Below are positions 1 through 33,367 of a stretch of 35,570 bases of DNA, piece after piece. Each line of letters opens with the position of its first letter. Within the stretch, counting starts at the first letter, position 1. The position numbers and the translations under genes were made by a program. Origin of the DNA: a virus; the IMG/VR virus record IMGVR_UViG_3300045988_124184, positions 1 through 35,570 of that record; one strand, given 5' to 3'. The notes under the pieces are model-generated. The model did no database searches. It was not told the DNA's origin and saw only the letters and a list, made by a program, of their open reading frames with translations.

Positions 1-55
1 TATGTTGTCCTCGAACTTTTATGAAAATCTTTCTGATTGGTTCGAGCAACAAACA
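1..55. repeat. Terminal overlap copy 1 (identical to 35516-35570)
   Basis: Exact 55-nt identity read directly; it lies inside a CDS that continues across the junction in frame. Confidence 0.95.
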
Positions 56-15674: not shown

Positions 15675-15702
15675 GCATATAAAAAACGGCGTAGATACGT
15701 AT

Positions 15703-15758
15703 AGCGCACTTGACTGGGGGTCAAGGGGCCGCAGGTTCAAGTCCTGTCACTCGGACCA
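15703..15758 (+). other. attP core: 3' portion of tRNA-Pro(GGG), from the D-stem 3' strand to CCA
   Basis: GCGC-A-CTTGA-CTGGGGG-TCAAG-GGGCC-GCAGG-TTCAAGT-CCTGT-CACTCGG-A-CCA. It has an anticodon loop with GGG and G37, a T-arm and the acceptor 3' strand. The 5' acceptor and the 5' D-stem are absent. Confidence 0.8.
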
Positions 15759-15849: not shown

Positions 15850-15871
15850 ATTGTAACGCTATTGTAACGTT
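15850..15871 (+). repeat. Tandem 11-bp direct repeat ATTGTAACGCT/ATTGTAACGTT (putative arm-type sites, P' arm)
   Basis: One-base variants of the 15653-15674 repeat in the same orientation, abutting the int stop codon. Confidence 0.7.
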
Positions 15872-16899
15872 TATTTTAGTAAGCCGATTGCATTTTTTAA
15901 GGTGTTGATACTTTGGTGTATATATGTGTTTGCGGTAGTATCATAGTCGGTATGACCAAGTATTTTTTGAATATCTTCTGGGCGTGCACCTGCTGCTGAT
16001 AGCATTGTCGCACATGTGTGCCTTGTACAGTGTGGAGAGAGTGGGCGGACTCCGATTTTTTCTAAAGCAGGATAGTAGCATTTTTCACGGAAGAGCCGTG
16101 CAGTATATGGAGTGCCATCTTCTTTACAAAAAATAGTTTTTCCTTTTTTTGATAGCCATTTTTCAACAATAGGAAGAATCTTAGCGTGAACCGGAACATT
16201 TCTGTTTTTACCAGCTGTCGTTTTACTTCCACCAGTCAGAATATTATTTTTAGAGTCATAAGAAAAAGGCGTTAAATTTAAAAATTCATTTATACGAAAT
16301 CCTGTATAGCACATGCATAAAATTACATCCGCAAAAGGGACTATGTCGACCGATTTTTCAATTTTTGCAAGTTCAATATCTGTAAAGCTGTCTTTGCTTT
16401 TTGTTTCAGCTTTAGGAAGGTTGATAAACTCTGCGTAATTTTTACTTACAATATCGTTTTCAAGTGCATACTTATAAAGCTGTACCAAAAGTAGCTTTAT
16501 CTTTGATAGTGAGGATTGCGACATGCTAGCATTATCGTCAATAATTTTTTGCATTTGGCTTGTGCGAATATCTCGAAAGCGTATCCTATAGAGTTCAGAT
16601 AACTTTTTATATGCAGCGTTGTAGTTATCTATCGTTTGCTTTGAAATGTTCCTATAAGCGATTTCAGACCACTCTGTGAATACCTCAGAAAAAATAATGT
16701 TGAATTTTTCTGTTGGGTTCTGCTGATATTGAAATAAGGCTTCTTTTGCTTCTCTTGACGTCTTAAAGTGTCCTATCACTATTCGCTTTGGTTTTCCTTC
16801 GTCTGTATATATAGCGGGGGCTATAGCCACCCACGGACGCGATTTACTGTCTTTACGCTTGCAAACCGTTCCAGTTCCATTGCCTCTCTGTTTGCTCAT
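15871..16899 (-). CDS. int: Tyrosine recombinase (phage integrase)
   Basis: 342 aa. The C-terminal catalytic signature is present (HCTRHTCATML...ILGHTDYDTTANTYIH). RBS AGGAGGTAC. It lies adjacent to attP. Confidence 0.95.
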   Translation of the reverse strand: MSKQRGNGTGTVCKRKDSKSRPWVAIAPAIYTDEGKPKRIVIGHFKTSREAKEALFQYQQNPTEKFNIIFSEVFTEWSEIAYRNISKQTIDNYNAAYKKLSELYRIRFRDIRTSQMQKIIDDNASMSQSSLSKIKLLLVQLYKYALENDIVSKNYAEFINLPKAETKSKDSFTDIELAKIEKSVDIVPFADVILCMCYTGFRINEFLNLTPFSYDSKNNILTGGSKTTAGKNRNVPVHAKILPIVEKWLSKKGKTIFCKEDGTPYTARLFREKCYYPALEKIGVRPLSPHCTRHTCATMLSAAGARPEDIQKILGHTDYDTTANTYIHQSINTLKNAIGLLK

Positions 16900-16915
16900 T
16901 TTTAATTGTACCTCC

Positions 16916-16960
16916 TAAAAAAGGGCGCAAAAAAGCAGCCCCTTGATTTTTACGGGCTGC
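16916..16960 (-). terminator. Intrinsic terminator on the - strand, immediately upstream of the int SD
   Basis: On the - strand: GCAGCCC-12 nt-GGGCTGC followed by TTTTTTGCGCCCTTTTTT, then AGGAGG and the int ATG. Confidence 0.65.
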
Positions 16961-16971
16961 AATGGTACAAT
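16943..16971 (+). promoter_or_regulatory. Near-consensus + strand promoter facing away from int
   Basis: TTGATT (16943-16948), 17 nt, TGgTACAAT (-10 at 16966-16971). Confidence 0.55.
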
Positions 16972-16977
16972 ATTTTT

Positions 16978-17059
16978 GGTTGAATACCGTACTATGTAGC
17001 CCTAGGGTTATATAGTCAACGTCCTTATCCTGTTGGCGCAGGGTAGGGGCGTTTTTTTT
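16978..17059 (+). ncRNA. Candidate ~80-nt small RNA (promoter at 16943-16971, terminator at 17020-17059)
   Basis: No ORF or SD is present. It ends in a 13-bp stem CGTCCTTATCCTG/CAGGGTAGGGGCG (three G-U pairs) plus T8, which can terminate only on the + strand. Confidence 0.45.
16991..17019 (-). promoter_or_regulatory. Candidate int promoter (- strand)
   Basis: On the - strand: TTGACT, 17 nt, CATAGT. The spacer holds the palindrome CCCTAGGG (17000-17007). It lies inside the candidate sRNA. Confidence 0.4.
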
Positions 17060-17179
17060 ATTTTGCTTTCTTATCATTTAAAGGTGTCGAAATCGACCAC
17101 TTTAAAAATTTAGTCTGGTTTAATCCGTTTAATATCGTAATAGTGAGCGTTTTTTTATTGTATAGTATGCTTGCTATTT

Positions 17180-17818
17180 CTAATTAACAAATTTGTGGAT
17201 AAAGCCAGTGGCAATACCTTCGATAACTAATTTATTTATTTCTTCTTTAATGTACACTAACGGCTCATAATTTGCATTAGCAGGCTGTAAAATAACTTTA
17301 TCTTGATATTTGAATACTTTCTTTAATGTTGCTTCTCCGTCTATTCTAACAGCCGCTATTTGTCCGTTATAGTCAATGTCTGGTTGCTTTATCAAGTAAA
17401 CTACATCACCAGAGCGTATACCAGCTTCAATCATGCTATCCCCATCACAAGTTAAGAGAAAATCGCATTTAACATCTTTAGGAACGTTTACATAGTCCTC
17501 AATATTCTGTTCTGCTAAAATAGGCGTGCCACATGCAATTTTTCCTACTAATGGCTTTAAAACCATTTCTGGAGGTGGAGAAAAGCCTTCTGGAATTTCA
17601 GACTTTTGTTCCACCTCTTCTGTCCAACCCATTAAGTATGCAGGGGTAGTGTGTAACGCTTTTGCTAATTTTGCAATTTTATCACGGCGCATATTGGCTA
17701 TTACTCCACTTTCCCAGCGCTGTACAGTAGGCTTACTAACTCCAACTTCTTTAGCCACATCATCCATAGTTAATCCTAAAGATAATCTACGAGTTTTTAT
17801 CTTATCGCATAATTCCAT
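17180..17818 (-). CDS. CI-like repressor: XRE HTH + S24 (LexA-type) autopeptidase domain
   Basis: ATG at 17818 follows AAGGGAGGA. It has an HTH (LGLTMDDVAKEVGVSKPTVQRWESG) and a Ser/Lys dyad context (GDSM ... ATLKKV). Confidence 0.92.
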   Translation of the reverse strand: MELCDKIKTRRLSLGLTMDDVAKEVGVSKPTVQRWESGVIANMRRDKIAKLAKALHTTPAYLMGWTEEVEQKSEIPEGFSPPPEMVLKPLVGKIACGTPILAEQNIEDYVNVPKDVKCDFLLTCDGDSMIEAGIRSGDVVYLIKQPDIDYNGQIAAVRIDGEATLKKVFKYQDKVILQPANANYEPLVYIKEEINKLVIEGIATGFIHKFVN

Positions 17819-17841
17819 ATTAGTAATCCTCCCTTGTGTAT

Positions 17842-17870
17842 ATAATAACATAATTGTTGCGTTTTTGCAA
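17842..17870 (-). promoter_or_regulatory. Repressor-maintenance promoter overlapped by operator O1
   Basis: On the - strand: TTGCAA, 17 nt, TGtTATTAT. O1 (TTGCGTTTTTGCAA, 17857-17870) covers the -35. Confidence 0.6.
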
Positions 17871-17909
17871 TAATTATTTATTTTATTTTAAAAAAGTTGC
17901 ATTAACGTA

Positions 17910-17956
17910 TTGACAATGATAATTGAGTGTGATAATATTTGGTTACGGAAACGCAA
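17910..17956 (+). promoter_or_regulatory. Early lytic promoter plus operator O2
   Basis: TTGACA (17910-17915), 17 nt, TGaTAATAT (-10 at 17933-17938). O2 is TTACGGAAACGCAA (17943-17956), whose reverse complement is TTGCGTTTCCGTAA. Confidence 0.7.
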
Positions 17957-19044: not shown

Positions 19045-19272
19045 ATGCAAACTTTAAAAGAGGTAGAAGCCTATACGGAGGAGTTTTTAACCCCTAAAGA
19101 TGTGGCAAAAGTGCTGGGATGTGATGCGCAGACAATACGCGTACAAGCTAACCGCTGTCCTGAAAGGTTGGGCTTTCCTGTATCTATCATCGGTACACGT
19201 GTGAAGATACCGAAAGAAGCATTTTTGAAGTTTATGAGAGGAGACTTAAAGCCAAATGAACAAAATATTTGA
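19045..19272 (+). CDS. Small HTH protein, excisionase/MerR-like (candidate Xis)
   Basis: 75 aa, RBS AAGGAGGTGA. FLTPKDVAKVLGCDAQTIRVQ...VKIPKEAFLKFM is typical of HTH_17/excisionase-family proteins. Confidence 0.6.
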   Translation: MQTLKEVEAYTEEFLTPKDVAKVLGCDAQTIRVQANRCPERLGFPVSIIGTRVKIPKEAFLKFMRGDLKPNEQNI

Positions 19273-19513
19273 TTGGGTATTTATTGTATTGACTTTTGCT
19301 TTAGCTATGGCCGCTTTAGGTGTGGTTGGAAGTTTTGAGCTGGGAAATATCGACTTTGCAGGCTTCTTTATAGGACAAGCCGTTTGCATAGCTGGTATAG
19401 CTTTGCTGGCAGTAGTCCATCACCTTTTAAGTAAAAAAAGAAAAAGCCCTAGAGGAGCGGCAACTCCTACTAAGGGCAAAGGAAAATATATACATAAAAA
19501 GTATATCAGATAG
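19256..19513 (+). CDS. Small membrane protein (2 TM helices, basic C-tail)
   Basis: Hydrophobic helices followed by KKRKSPRGAATPTKGKGKYIHKKYIR. Confidence 0.6.
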   Translation: MNKIFDWVFIVLTFALAMAALGVVGSFELGNIDFAGFFIGQAVCIAGIALLAVVHHLLSKKRKSPRGAATPTKGKGKYIHKKYIR

Positions 19514-19528
19514 GAGAGTGTGTGTCAA

Positions 19529-19774
19529 ATGAGATATGAAGACCATCCACTTTTTAGAAAACCTCCGTTAATCGGGTATCGTGGTATATGTAAGAATCGT
19601 GACATTTCCATTGTATACAAAGAGGAAGCTGTTGAGTATGCCATGAATAAGCTAGGATATGAGAAAAACCCATATGCAGAGCCAGATGAGCAGATGAAAA
19701 AAGAGTTTGAAAGTATGATTGTTGATTGGTTTTATAGCGGAGACTGGAGAGAGGTACGCGAAGATGAAGAGTAG
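19529..19774 (+). CDS. Hypothetical early protein
   Basis: ATG at 19529 is 10 nt after GGAGAG; GTG 19520 is an alternative start. Confidence 0.6.
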   Translation: MRYEDHPLFRKPPLIGYRGICKNRDISIVYKEEAVEYAMNKLGYEKNPYAEPDEQMKKEFESMIVDWFYSGDWREVREDEE

Positions 19775-32666: not shown

Positions 32667-32779
32667 TGCCCTGAGCAAGGCGTTAAAAGGCTTTTTTATT
32701 ATGGCTGACTACGAGCGTAATCGGTGGAGTGGAAAGAGATGCGACCTCGTATAAAAGCGTATCTACAGAAAGGATAACT

Positions 32780-33367
32780 ATGAAACGAGAAGAACTAATT
32801 GAACTGAATGTGCCTGAAGAAGCGATTGACAAAATTATGCAGATTAACGGAGCGGATATAGAAAAAGTAAAAACTGCTCTCGAAGAAAAAGAAAAAGCGC
32901 TGACCGAAGCACACGAGAACTTAGAGGCTGCCAACAAGCAGATAGAAGAGTTCAAAGGAATGGATATTGAAAGTATCCAAAAAGCATGTGATGACTGGAA
33001 GCAAAAAGCAGAACAAGCCGAAGCAGACAAGCAAAAGTTTATCCATGAAAGCAAGGTTGCAGGATACGTAAAGGGTTTAAAACTAAAAGATGAAATTTAC
33101 GAAAATCATGTAACAAAAATGCTGCTGGATAAAGGATTACAATTTGAAGGTGATAAGCTTATTGGTGCAGATGATGTGGTAAATCCATTTAAGGAATCTT
33201 ATCCAGACGCATTTCAGAGTACAAAACCAACACCGACATTTGTAGCGGCTACAGGTACATCACAAGAAATGAAATTAACAAAGGAAGATTTTAGAAAAAT
33301 GGGATATCAGGATAGATTATCTCTTAAGTCTGAATATCCCGAACTTTATAATGAACTAAAGGAGTAA
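32780..33367 (+). CDS. Scaffolding protein
   Basis: 195 aa from ATG 32780, highly charged coiled coil, directly upstream of the capsid gene. Confidence 0.75.
   Translation: MKREELIELNVPEEAIDKIMQINGADIEKVKTALEEKEKALTEAHENLEAANKQIEEFKGMDIESIQKACDDWKQKAEQAEADKQKFIHESKVAGYVKGLKLKDEIYENHVTKMLLDKGLQFEGDKLIGADDVVNPFKESYPDAFQSTKPTPTFVAATGTSQEMKLTKEDFRKMGYQDRLSLKSEYPELYNELKE

Follow-up and report, generated by a model that had tools for sequence, protein, structure and literature searches.

A candidate antisense-RNA attenuator in the leader of a phage integrase gene

Countertranscript-driven attenuation has been described as a means of replication control in plasmids of Gram-positive bacteria, including pT181, pIP501 and pAMbeta1 (PMC3753616, PMC2879508), and in pT181 binding of the antisense RNA lets a terminator form (PMC3753616). 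In Shigella flexneri, the convergent cis-antisense RNA RnaG promotes an intrinsic terminator in the nascent leader of its target, icsA (PMC2879508). Among phages, the short antisense RNAs OOP of lambda, sar of P22 and c4 of P1 have been summarised previously (PMC7067206, PMC12197685). The RNA predicted here is unrelated to these phage RNAs in sequence and resembles them in kind, as they are RNAs of about 77 nt, each with a promoter and an intrinsic terminator of its own, that modulate a lysogeny gene from within the lysogeny region. OOP targets the 3′ end of cII through RNase III-dependent decay, and we know of none of the three that controls int via a leader attenuator.

For int itself, lambda combines activation of PI by CII with retroregulation by sib, an element downstream of int through which read-through transcripts are exposed to RNase III. 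To our knowledge, little is known of integrase timing in the temperate phages of Gram-positive gut bacteria, in many of which int follows immediately on cI or on cargo genes expressed in lysogeny, with no obvious promoter. The switches of phages 186 and P2, another possible point of comparison, require two genuine face-to-face promoters.

The locus considered here belongs to a phage of gut bacteria, IMG/VR virus record IMGVR_UViG_3300045988_124184, a stretch of 35,570 nt that we refer to as the window. Positions 16917-17059, within the interval between cI and int, appear to form a self-contained regulatory cassette in the int leader, an assignment that is well supported at the level of sequence by a promoter, a terminator, a strand-specific RNA structure and two competing helices, and by their conservation and genomic context. 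The antisense RNA of about 80 bases that it encodes probably halts read-through transcripts just ahead of int. The framing genes and signals are:

15871-16899, minus strand: int, encoding a tyrosine recombinase (Pfam Phage_integrase, E = 1.7e-23)
16916-16911, minus strand: int ribosome-binding site, AGGAGG, with the ATG start codon at 16899-16897
17180-17870, minus strand: gene for a cI-like repressor (Pfam HTH_3 and Peptidase_S24)
17870-17842, minus strand: cI promoter, TTGCAA-17-TGnTATTAT, from a promoter scan

The cI gene is the likely origin of an int-sense read-through transcript, and read-through from cI is the route by which int-sense RNA most likely reaches the leader. A consensus terminator scan predicted no minus-strand terminator between the cI stop codon and the hairpin designated A below, and the interval between hairpin A and the Shine-Dalgarno (SD) sequence of int is too short to hold a promoter. 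The attachment site attP most likely sits on the opposite side of int, beside a tRNA-like fragment.

Three features on the plus strand define the predicted antisense RNA:

16943-16971, plus strand: P(+), the antisense RNA promoter, TTGATT-17-TGgTACAAT (promoter scan and conservation)
16978-17059, plus strand: predicted non-coding countertranscript of about 82 nt (promoter, terminator and folding)
17018-17059, plus strand only: T(+), an intrinsic terminator with a stem-loop at 17018-17053 followed by T8

P(+) is composed of a -35 element (TTGATT, 16943-48), a 17-nt spacer, the TG of an extended -10 element (16963-64) and TACAAT (16966-71). Its conservation was assessed in a family set assembled independently of the promoter, using as an anchor the unrelated sequence GGGCATTTTTATGCCC; among the matches listed, this set holds 98 non-redundant loci, 71 of them with the cassette. 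The pattern TTGNNN-17-TGnTAnnnT occurs in 71 of these 98 listed loci, versus 3 on the opposite strand and 5.7 in shuffled sequences, and the near-consensus plus-strand promoter that the initial annotation had placed within the hairpin region is confirmed. Among the matches listed, the -35 element begins with TTG in all 71 modules, the spacer measures 17 nt in 64 and TG occupies positions -15/-14 in 63, with TACAAT, TAAAAT, TATAAT and TACTAT as the variants of the -10 element. In these sequences, variation in P(+) is confined to positions at which promoters tolerate change.

The RNA predicted to start at P(+) comprises a short 5′ hairpin, a stem-loop designated SL1 (16989-17017) and the terminator stem-loop, and the entire 85-nt RNA folds with an energy of -39.9 kcal/mol (z = -7.2). 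The proposal of a plus-strand non-coding transcript of about 82 nt is borne out, as a predicted RNA, by its conserved promoter, its terminator and its strand-specific fold. Across the family, among the matches listed, the median predicted length is 75 nt (IQR 72-76), a plus-strand terminator lies downstream of P(+) in 60 of 71 modules, and the plus sense folds better than its complement in 69 of 71 (means of -33.1 and -20.2, respectively). Small open reading frames within the RNA were considered and rejected, since an SD sequence precedes such a frame in only 1 of 55 family RNAs.

The stem of T(+) contains 16 bp, including four G.U pairs, and is capped by the hexaloop UUGGCG (17033-17038). Its folding energy is -23.8 kcal/mol (z = -7.1) on the plus strand and only -10.2 on the minus strand, so that it is strand-specific, and the scan calls it as an intrinsic terminator. 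The earlier description of a terminator confined to the plus strand and ending in T8 is accurate, and the 13-bp stem attributed to it is replaced by the 16 pairs counted here with G.U pairs included. When complete plus-strand RNAs were aligned with MAFFT and analysed with RNAalifold, the terminator stem alone was recovered, because the 5′ half of the RNA is too divergent for alignment; all 7 pairs of this stem show compensatory changes among 51 relatives, and U.G pairs are numerous. The RNA body is almost wholly different between subfamilies, with only its architecture retained, and the family hexaloop is either UUGGCG or its exact inverse, CGCCAA, between identical flanking stems.

The cassette is present in well over 100 IMG/VR contigs and also in Clostridia genomes. 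It lies upstream of int in three of eight relatives retrieved by the int protein alone, and about 30 loci retrieved by promoter motifs carry it as well. Its position is always directly upstream of a recombinase gene, of the tyrosine or the large serine type, so that unrelated recombinases of both kinds are preceded by it. A co-oriented open reading frame of at least 100 aa ends beside the cassette in nearly all members, and in the relatives the stop codon of this upstream gene abuts it. One RNA sequence type is found in combination with three different int families, from which we infer that the cassette carries both the regulator and its target.

On the int-sense strand, the leader can adopt three helices:

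16954-17002, minus strand: H2, a long imperfect hairpin and proposed anti-terminator (folding energy -17.0, z = -4.2)
16929-16960, minus strand: hairpin A with U6, resembling an intrinsic terminator (-15.2 kcal/mol, z = -3.7)
16917-16941, minus strand: the equivalent of hairpin B, GGGCUGC-U6-GCGCCC followed by a second U6 (-9.9, z = -3.2)

In hairpin A, GCAGCCC (16960-16954) pairs with GGGCUGC (16941-16935) across a 12-nt loop that bears the complement of the P(+) -35 element, with U6 at 16934-16929; the sequence then continues through GCGCCC and the second U6 (16922-16917) into the SD, AGGAGG. Sequence and folding confirm what had first been noticed here, a GC-rich hairpin and T-run on the minus strand directly ahead of the int SD. 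Measured against an intrinsic terminator, hairpin A has by folding a GC-rich stem of 7 bp and U6, and the terminator scan makes no call; its loop, 8-12 nt, is large for such a terminator, and the 12 nt found in the window exceed the limit of the scan. The 5′ arm of H2 (17002-16983) is covered by the antisense RNA, and its 3′ arm (16974-16954) holds both the complement of the P(+) -10 element and the 5′ arm of hairpin A.

Among the matches listed, H2 and hairpin A each occur in 70 of 71 modules, with medians of 17 and 8 bp, and the arm sequences differ between subfamilies. An overlap of 4 nt or more between the 3′ arm of H2 and hairpin A occurs in 63 of 70 of these listed modules, always at the base of A beside the U-run. 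In all 67 of 67 modules, again among the matches listed, the predicted plus-strand start site lies inside the H2 loop. The RNA therefore spans the upstream arm in full and leaves the downstream arm uncovered, which makes its sequence the complement of the H2 arm in competition with hairpin A. Exchanging arms between modules raises the mean folding energy of H2 from -20.2 in native sequences to -12.9 in chimeras, a cost of 7.3 kcal/mol; for hairpin A the cost is 3.1 kcal/mol. Folding of chimeras was adopted after a comparison of cognate and non-cognate arms with RNAduplex proved too noisy, because GGGC/GCCC motifs are common to the arms, and covariation in H2 and A was followed with custom anchor-based scripts rather than a calibrated covariance model.

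Folded in silico, the free leader of the window adopts H2 (16 bp) and no hairpin A, and blocking the region covered by the antisense RNA yields hairpin A (8 bp). A clean switch of this kind is predicted, by minimum free energy, in only 19 of 43 non-redundant modules, and in about half of the modules a shortened A can coexist with H2. H2 is also slightly more stable in the plus sense (-21.8 vs -17.0 in the window), a bias seen in 47 family members as against 21 with the opposite preference among the matches listed, and one that is not predicted by selection acting solely on an int-sense RNA helix. Several members (L017, L071, L108, L159 and L241) have a hairpin A that includes the SD and lacks the U-run. 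Hairpin B uses the 3′ arm of hairpin A as its 5′ arm. At its position most relatives carry the invariant palindrome GGGCATTTTTATGCCC, its tail is T-rich in just 32 of 71 relatives among the matches listed, and its sequence conservation far exceeds the needs of an attenuator.

We consider it roughly an even call that the region is an attenuator, operated by an antisense RNA, by which int is uncoupled from the transcription of cI. The transcription of the cassette, the pairing of its RNAs, the termination that would ensue and the physiological logic are all inferred from the features above. A strong, housekeeping-type plus-strand promoter embedded in the structures of the int leader would produce a structured countertranscript of about 80 nt that ends at its own plus-strand-only terminator. 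The int gene would have no promoter of its own, its mRNA being an extension of the cI transcript or, in relatives, of that of whichever gene lies upstream. In a naked leader, 17002-16983 would pair with 16974-16954 to form H2, and since H2 holds the 5′ arm of hairpin A, RNA polymerase is proposed to continue into int. The countertranscript would pair with the leader along the stretch that runs from the T(+) hairpin to the loop of H2, initial contact probably occurring between complementary hairpin loops; with the upstream H2 arm sequestered, hairpin A and its U6 would form and transcription would end about 30 nt before the start codon of int. Some relatives may instead use this hairpin to bury the ribosome-binding site. 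The net effect would be to uncouple int from lysogenic transcription of cI or of a moron, so that integrase would be made mainly at low levels of the antisense RNA, such as those directly after infection.

This arrangement shares much with that of pT181, pIP501 and pAMbeta1. In sequence and conservation, the cassette has a short, structured antisense RNA whose promoter lies within the leader and which has its own terminator; the RNA is complementary to the preemptor arm and not to the arms of the terminator (67 of 67 modules among the matches listed); an intrinsic terminator would stand immediately ahead of the SD of the gene under control; and hairpin loops suited to kissing and hosts among the Firmicutes are common to both. 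A clean switch between mutually exclusive pairings of the pT181 type is predicted in the window and in only 19 of 43 modules, and H2 has no int-sense bias. The cassette would differ in regulating a phage integrase or other recombinase rather than a replication initiator and in drawing its sense transcript from an upstream gene where the plasmids use a dedicated promoter, and it differs in having the antisense promoter interleaved with the terminator, its -35 element in the loop and its -10 element in the competing arm. Sequence homology is lacking: the Rfam model for the pT181 countertranscript (RF00242, ctRNA_pT181) scores 22.9 bits by cmscan at 16984-17067 on the plus strand, against a gathering threshold of 56 (E = 1.5).

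RnaG and icsA provide a second parallel, with a cis-antisense RNA from a strong promoter, a terminator in the target leader, and a precedent for interference and attenuation acting together. RnaG is 450 nt long, compared with about 80 nt for the cassette RNA, and overlaps the icsA promoter and the start of the coding region; it has a defined convergent partner promoter, where none was found for the cassette; and it belongs to a virulence plasmid locus of a Gram-negative host. With the control of lambda int, the cassette would share the principle that int is kept apart from neighbouring transcription and expressed at the right moment only, with an RNA structure beside int, although here the control element lies upstream of int, not downstream as sib does, and comes with a dedicated antisense RNA.

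The initial annotation had proposed a convergent organisation, in which two start sites face each other as in 186 and P2, on the basis of a candidate int promoter:

16991-17019, minus strand: Pint, TTGACT-17-CATAGT, an unsupported promoter assignment overlapping SL1 and, in the H2 5′ arm, a mirror copy of a -10 element

Pint matches the consensus at 9 of 12 positions, and such matches number 18 in 3 kb as compared with 10.9 +/- 3.8 in shuffled sequences; together with its lack of conservation, this chance-level frequency argues against a role as the int promoter. Among the matches listed, the int-sense pattern TTGNNN-16..18-TANNNT occurs in 10 of 71 modules versus 6.0 expected, at variable positions. 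The Pint -10 element is the mirror copy of the P(+) -10 element within the H2 inverted repeat, on the 5′ arm, and matches TANNNT in only 26 of the 66 relatives among the matches listed, unaccompanied by a -35 element. A transcript started at Pint would lack the 5′ arm of H2, and therefore hairpin A would always fold. Of the two facing promoters only P(+) is conserved, the int-sense partner standing at chance level, and the analogy with 186 and P2 is consequently reduced to two transcription units that face each other in a lysogeny region: the cassette has one supported promoter, and its overlap specifies both a structured RNA with its own terminator and leader helices in competition. The 8-bp palindrome CCCTAGGG noted in the Pint spacer (17000-17007) lies at the tip of the middle hairpin in the plus-strand RNA and is not conserved, because close relatives read CCCTGTGGG or CCCTGGGG there. 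What stands of the proposed gating of int is the antisense RNA together with an attenuator or terminator, both of which conservation supports strongly, and the face-to-face promoters fall away; likewise, int-sense transcripts would meet a terminator when they arrive by cI read-through, the most likely route, and not as products of Pint. Interference of polymerases leaving P(+) with incoming ones may add a secondary effect.

Other explanations would make different use of the same elements. The antisense RNA might act post-transcriptionally, through a leader duplex of about 80 bp that invites RNase III cleavage and decay or alters int translation, with hairpin A as a terminator that acts constitutively, and leakily, on the upstream operon. 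The evidence for the plus-strand RNA, fully complementary to the leader, serves this explanation as well as it does attenuation, A can form beside H2 in about half of the relatives, and where the SD lies inside a hairpin A without a U-run (in the five members named above) translational control would be indicated. Yet it leaves unexplained the constant position of the plus-strand start site in the H2 loop and the base shared by H2 and A (63 of 70 among the matches listed), and the duplex would lie at least about 45 nt upstream of the SD; we regard it as unlikely. Transcriptional interference, in which polymerases from P(+) collide with or occlude those arriving from cI over the overlap of about 80 bp and the RNA is irrelevant, modifies the idea of the initial annotation and draws on a near-consensus promoter that faces incoming int-sense transcription and on the combination of interference with attenuation in RnaG/icsA of Shigella (PMC2879508). 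That the plus-strand RNA has a strand-specific, covarying structure and a fixed length points instead to selection on the RNA itself; the partner promoter Pint is unconserved, and interference requires neither H2 nor hairpin A, which leaves it distinctly improbable.

Lysogens commonly express sRNAs from their prophages (PMC12197685, PMC7067206), and the window holds a second antisense-type unit with a similar UUGCCG loop at 19432-19528, both of which would suit a trans-acting sRNA with a host or phage target elsewhere, incidentally close to int, and a hairpin A that only terminates the upstream operon. Divergence of the RNA body across subfamilies with retention of its architecture speaks for a cis-antisense RNA rather than one with a conserved target in trans, a recombinase gene invariably follows the unit directly, int would be left promoterless, and the RNA has no further match in the window beyond 11-12 nt; a trans-acting role is very doubtful. 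We give a similarly small chance to the view that the inverted repeats are DNA sites for proteins, either an operator of P(+) or accessory sites of the recombinase, rather than RNA helices. H2 is centred on the plus-strand start site and its int-sense fold has no advantage over the plus-sense one, and the invariant hairpin B palindrome GGGCATTTTTATGCCC, at about -40 to -56 of P(+), resembles a dimer site. Against such sites, the arms of H2 and A change between subfamilies yet stay complementary, and no host protein could keep pace with such changes; the cassette has no protein product of its own, no operator-like words are common to it and the cI-cro region, and attP is most likely across int, at the tRNA-like fragment.

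If the attenuator is what the region encodes, a compact and widespread RNA cassette that isolates int from upstream transcription would account for the promoterless arrangement of int, and countertranscript-driven attenuation would reach from plasmid replication control to site-specific recombination. Annotators would gain a signature of about 150 nt by which to recognise the end of a Clostridia prophage at which int lies. Since the regulator moves together with its target, the natural variants would constitute a ready-made and probably orthogonal set of RNA attenuators, such as synthetic biologists have engineered from pT181 (PMC3753616). More tentatively, and as a possibility we would not favour at present, the cassette may be a portable "recombinase governor" that gut Clostridia phages set before unrelated tyrosine and serine recombinase genes and that, much as a plasmid copy-control RNA does, would register the time that the element has spent in the cell or the number of its copies there. 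The first cI or moron transcripts would then give a burst of integrase before the antisense RNA accumulates, int would be off in the established lysogen, and the hexaloop would be a strand-symmetric kissing contact that tolerates or exploits recurrent inversion of the hairpin loop.

The papers searched contained no description of an int-leader antisense RNA or attenuator of this kind. Rfam at gathering thresholds gave no match in the region, and a permissive scan returned only sub-threshold rliG, ctRNA_pT181 and PyrR. The rliG hit (RF02415; 34.6 bits vs 55, minus strand, 16930-17133) was rejected as being driven by the terminal hairpin and because its context differs, rliG of phi10403S being listed among early/late region genes and not beside int (PMC7397523). 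Searches with blastn found no match for the window cassette and two relatives among GenBank phages, nor for the window cassette among PLSDB plasmids. A 74-aa open reading frame (16853-17077, minus strand) has no Pfam match, and its frame is lost in close relatives. A role like that of a guide or bridge RNA was set aside, as no match of at least 9 nt to the presumed attP occurs and the same RNA type accompanies three int families. A further plus-strand terminator at 17126-17156 was dropped as weak (-3.9 kcal/mol, z = -1.3). The exact motif pair of P(+) also precedes ordinary genes in Clostridia genomes, where genes commonly have it as their promoter. Elsewhere in the window, 19432-19528 comprise the second short antisense-type unit mentioned above.

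The genome in the window is that of a temperate phage, in circularly permuted form; its + strand carries the structural and lysis genes and its - strand carries the lysogeny module. Within this module, a 280-bp gap between the gene for the cI-like repressor and that for the integrase (int) contains the segment termed here the cassette (16917-17059). The relevant features are listed below; the cro-like gene is taken from the window gene calls, and the cI and cro promoters were assigned from sequence.

15871-16899, - strand: int (Pfam Phage_integrase, E = 1.7e-23)
16943-16971, + strand: P(+), predicted promoter of the antisense RNA, TTGATT-17-TACAAT with TG at -15/-14 (consensus scan)
16960-16929, - strand, preceding the int Shine-Dalgarno sequence (SD): hairpin A, terminator-like, GCAGCCC/GGGCUGC with a 12-nt loop (fold -15.2, z = -3.7)
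17002-16954, - strand (int sense): H2, a long leader hairpin (fold -17.0, z = -4.2)
17018-17053, + strand: stem-loop of T(+), predicted terminator of the antisense RNA, followed by T8 (consensus scan)
17033-17038, + strand: hexaloop TTGGCG of T(+)
17180-17851, - strand: cI-like repressor (HTH_3 plus Peptidase_S24)
17870-17842, - strand: cI promoter, TTGCAA-17-TATTAT, extended -10 TG
17910-17938, + strand: cro promoter, TTGACA-17-TAATAT, extended -10 TG
17923 (start), + strand: cro-like gene, divergent from cI

The cI and cro promoters are arranged back to back and divergently (17842-17938). Just 3′ of int, a tRNA-like fragment (15688-15747, +) spans model positions 9-63 of 71 and scores 28.7 bits against the Rfam tRNA gathering score of 29; ARAGORN found no complete tRNA at this position. 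This fragment is probably the core of attP, where a host tRNA gene is duplicated in its 3′ part.

The promoter, terminator and - strand hairpin named in the initial annotation were all found where it had placed them, and its hairpin with a U-run before the int SD, our hairpin A, is borne out by folding. Beyond the 3′ side of the hairpin A stem come U6, GCGCCC, another U6 and AGGAGG. On the + strand, T(+) folds at -23.8 kcal/mol (z = -7.1) as opposed to -10.2 on the - strand, a strand specificity that is due to its four G.U pairs, and the predicted 85-nt transcript forms three hairpins (-39.9 kcal/mol, z = -7.2). A 74-aa - strand ORF crossing the region was rejected as coding, as its frame is lost in close relatives.

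A search with the int protein identified eight other viral contigs, three of which have the same arrangement upstream of int. The integrases of these three are 61%, 61% and 59% identical to that of the window; the cassettes differ in their stems but agree exactly in both promoter hexamer regions. A two-motif pattern search then returned about 30 further members amid chance matches. In bacterial genomes, matches to this pattern are mostly promoters of ordinary Clostridia genes, followed by a 5′ UTR, GGAGG and ATG, and the motif pair therefore represents the strong housekeeping promoter type of the clade. The form CTTGATTTT-N10-13-TGGTACAAT recurs before ordinary genes of Oscillospiraceae, Ruminococcus and other Clostridia (contigs L129-L248), and is usable as a clade-specific promoter consensus.

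To avoid the circularity of a promoter-motif search, an independent anchor was chosen, the palindrome GGGCATTTTTATGCCC of hairpin B. Among the matches listed, this anchor defines 98 non-redundant loci, of which 71 carry a + sense TTGNNN-16..18-TANNNT within 60 nt, compared with 3 on the other strand and 5.7 in shuffles. Of these 71 members, 64 have a 17-nt spacer and 63 have TG ahead of the -10; the -10 itself is TACAAT, TAAAAT, TATAAT or TACTAT, and the -35 consists of an invariant TTG followed by variable positions. Judged from sequence, this pattern of variation is that expected of a working promoter. A + strand intrinsic terminator lies downstream in 60/71, giving a predicted RNA that is 75 nt long at the median (IQR 72-76) and has no credible ORF. 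The RNA body folds better in the + sense than as its complement in 69/71 (-33.1 versus -20.2 kcal/mol), and when 51 diverse RNAs are aligned, each of the seven consensus pairs in the terminator stem exhibits compensatory changes, with many U.G pairs. From these comparisons, we conclude that the + strand yields a real RNA of ~80 nt that is non-coding and under selection, and that the RNA cassette is very probably genuine.

The gene downstream of the cassette is always a recombinase, although from unrelated families: several types of tyrosine integrase, as well as large serine recombinases whose domains are Resolvase, Recombinase and Zn_ribbon_recom. One RNA type, that of the window, is paired with three different integrase families. 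On the other side, nearly all members whose upstream sequence is long enough have a co-oriented ORF ending beside the cassette; in most of them 72-110 nt separate its stop codon from the -10 anchor downstream, which places the stop against the A-run of the + terminator. The upstream genes are of diverse kinds, assigned mostly by eye from translations as likely lipoproteins, other cargo genes and, in L108, an apparent cI-like repressor; the cI-like identity of the window's upstream gene is Pfam-confirmed. The window's subfamily (window, L010 and L082) has an additional spacer of ~100 nt between the upstream gene and the cassette. In the window this segment (17060-17160, from the + terminator to the cI stop) is conserved in L010 and L082 despite their different upstream genes, and contains a hairpin of equal stability on both strands (17077-17106, z about -4) and a weak candidate for a second + terminator (17126-17156).

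In the window, no terminator is predicted on the - strand in the stretch from cI to the cassette, the distance from hairpin A to the SD is too short for a promoter, and no conserved int-sense promoter was found anywhere in the cassette (10/71 members versus 6.0 expected, at scattered positions). The initial annotation had proposed a candidate int promoter, Pint (TTGACT-17-CATAGT, 17019-16991), which is not supported: it is a 9/12 match, of which 3 kb contains 18 (10.9 +/- 3.8 in shuffles), its -10 is a mirror copy of the + strand -10 located in the H2 upstream arm, and TANNNT is retained in only 26/66 relatives. On these grounds, int expression most likely arises by read-through from the upstream gene. 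In lysogens of the Listeria phage phi10403S, cI and the downstream int are co-expressed (PMC7397523).

The int-sense leader contains H2 in 70/71 anchored members (median 17 bp) and hairpin A in 70/71 (median 8 bp). The + strand -10 is present as its complement in the 3′ arm of H2, which then runs on into hairpin A's 5′ arm; the two hairpins overlap by at least 4 nt in 63/70, the common nucleotides forming the base of A beside the U-run. Arm sequences vary by subfamily (GGGCUAC/GCAGCCC, GGCCAGAUGG/CCAUCUGGCC, CCGGGAAA/UUUCCCGG), and the mean cost of swapping arms between members is 7.3 kcal/mol in H2 and 3.1 kcal/mol in A. The predicted + start site (TSS), 7 nt past the -10, falls inside the H2 loop in 67/67; therefore the antisense RNA spans all of H2's upstream arm without reaching into the downstream one. 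The H2 region folds slightly more stably on the + strand (-21.8 versus -17.0 in the int sense; + sense favoured in 47 members versus 21), and despite this bias both arms can be present only in int-sense transcripts.

This geometry suggests an attenuator. The free leader would form H2 without hairpin A, and RNA polymerase may continue toward int; a bound antisense RNA would occupy the H2 upstream arm, allowing hairpin A to form as a terminator just before int. In silico, the free window leader forms H2 (16 bp) without A, and A (8 bp) appears when the antisense-covered part is made unavailable. Weak points of the model are the + strand bias of H2 and the number of clean minimum-free-energy switches, obtained in only 19/43 non-redundant members; elsewhere a shortened A is often able to adjoin H2. 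In line with the model, the hairpins of the RNA itself are predicted to be strongly strand-biased: SL1 (stem-loop 16989-17017) folds at -13.4 in the + RNA versus -5.1 in the leader, and the G.U pairs that stabilize SL1 and T(+) become A.C mismatches in the leader, which would leave the upstream arm free for H2. In five members (L017, L071, L108, L159 and L241) hairpin A includes the SD and lacks a U-run, and the same switch would control translation.

Four other explanations bear on these observations. The antisense RNA could act post-transcriptionally, by way of RNase III or on translation, A being a leaky terminator, or promoter interference could operate with the RNA itself having no role; either could act alongside attenuation. 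Alternatively, the RNA might be a trans-acting sRNA situated here by chance, or the conserved elements might be protein sites at the DNA level. As the main explanation, all four are argued against by the fixed position of the TSS in the H2 loop, arms that covary, an RNA structure specific to one strand, an RNA body that diverges from subfamily to subfamily and a neighbouring gene that is invariably a recombinase. We consider it likely that the cassette controls the recombinase in cis, and give the specific attenuation mechanism about an even chance.

Hairpin B is less readily placed. GGGCATTTTTATGCCC is invariant in >70 cassettes (L249-L359) whose other stems all differ, a conservation beyond what a simple hairpin would require. 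Its position is 3-20 nt ahead of the SD of the recombinase gene and about -40 to -56 relative to P(+) (window equivalent 16917-16941, -), and a T-rich tail follows in only 32/71. Candidate roles are those of a second terminator, of an UP element or protein site, or of a 5′ stabilizer.

The cassette geometry matches the countertranscript-driven attenuators of plasmids pT181, pIP501 and pAMbeta1, in which, according to PMC3753616 and PMC2879508, an antisense-bound leader forms a terminator just before the regulated gene. By this analogy, the logic is the known one of an antisense-RNA attenuator; the novelty lies in the family, its target (site-specific recombinases of Clostridia phages) and the interleaving of the antisense promoter with the terminator. 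No Rfam family reaches its gathering score in the region: ctRNA_pT181 (22.9 versus 56) and rliG (34.6 versus 55) were rejected as sub-threshold, and rliG of phi10403S, unlike the cassette, is listed among genes of the early/late region and not beside int. Three cassette sequences (window and two relatives) had no similar DNA in GenBank phages, and that of the window had no match among PLSDB plasmids. The literature searched yielded no description of an int-leader antisense attenuator, and a 2025 review of phage sRNAs leaves integrase unmentioned.

The hexaloop of the + terminator is conserved as UUGSNG across subfamilies with differing stems, and its exact reverse complement is also found (33 versus 14 non-redundant sequences). 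Four stem contexts, identical over 13 + 13 nt, carry both orientations (TTGGCG and CGCCAA); the members compared include L036, L079 and L094 versus L052, L082 and L010, and L252 versus L267. This suggests recurrent inversion of the hairpin loop under a constraint symmetric between strands, such as a loop-loop kissing contact between antisense RNA and leader would impose.

A second candidate short antisense RNA occurs in the window at 19432-19528 (-). Its near-consensus promoter is as follows.

19528-19500, - strand: TTGACA-17-TGaTATACT (11/12; from sequence)

About 55 nt past this promoter, a UUGCCG-loop hairpin (-18.4 kcal/mol, z = -4.2) precedes a U-run, and the candidate is antisense to the + strand early ORFs 19256-19513 and 19520-19774. 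Elsewhere, a GP20-b RNA motif (RF03003; 32703-32761, +; 42.6 bits versus a gathering threshold of 36.2) overlaps the start of ORF 32729-33367.
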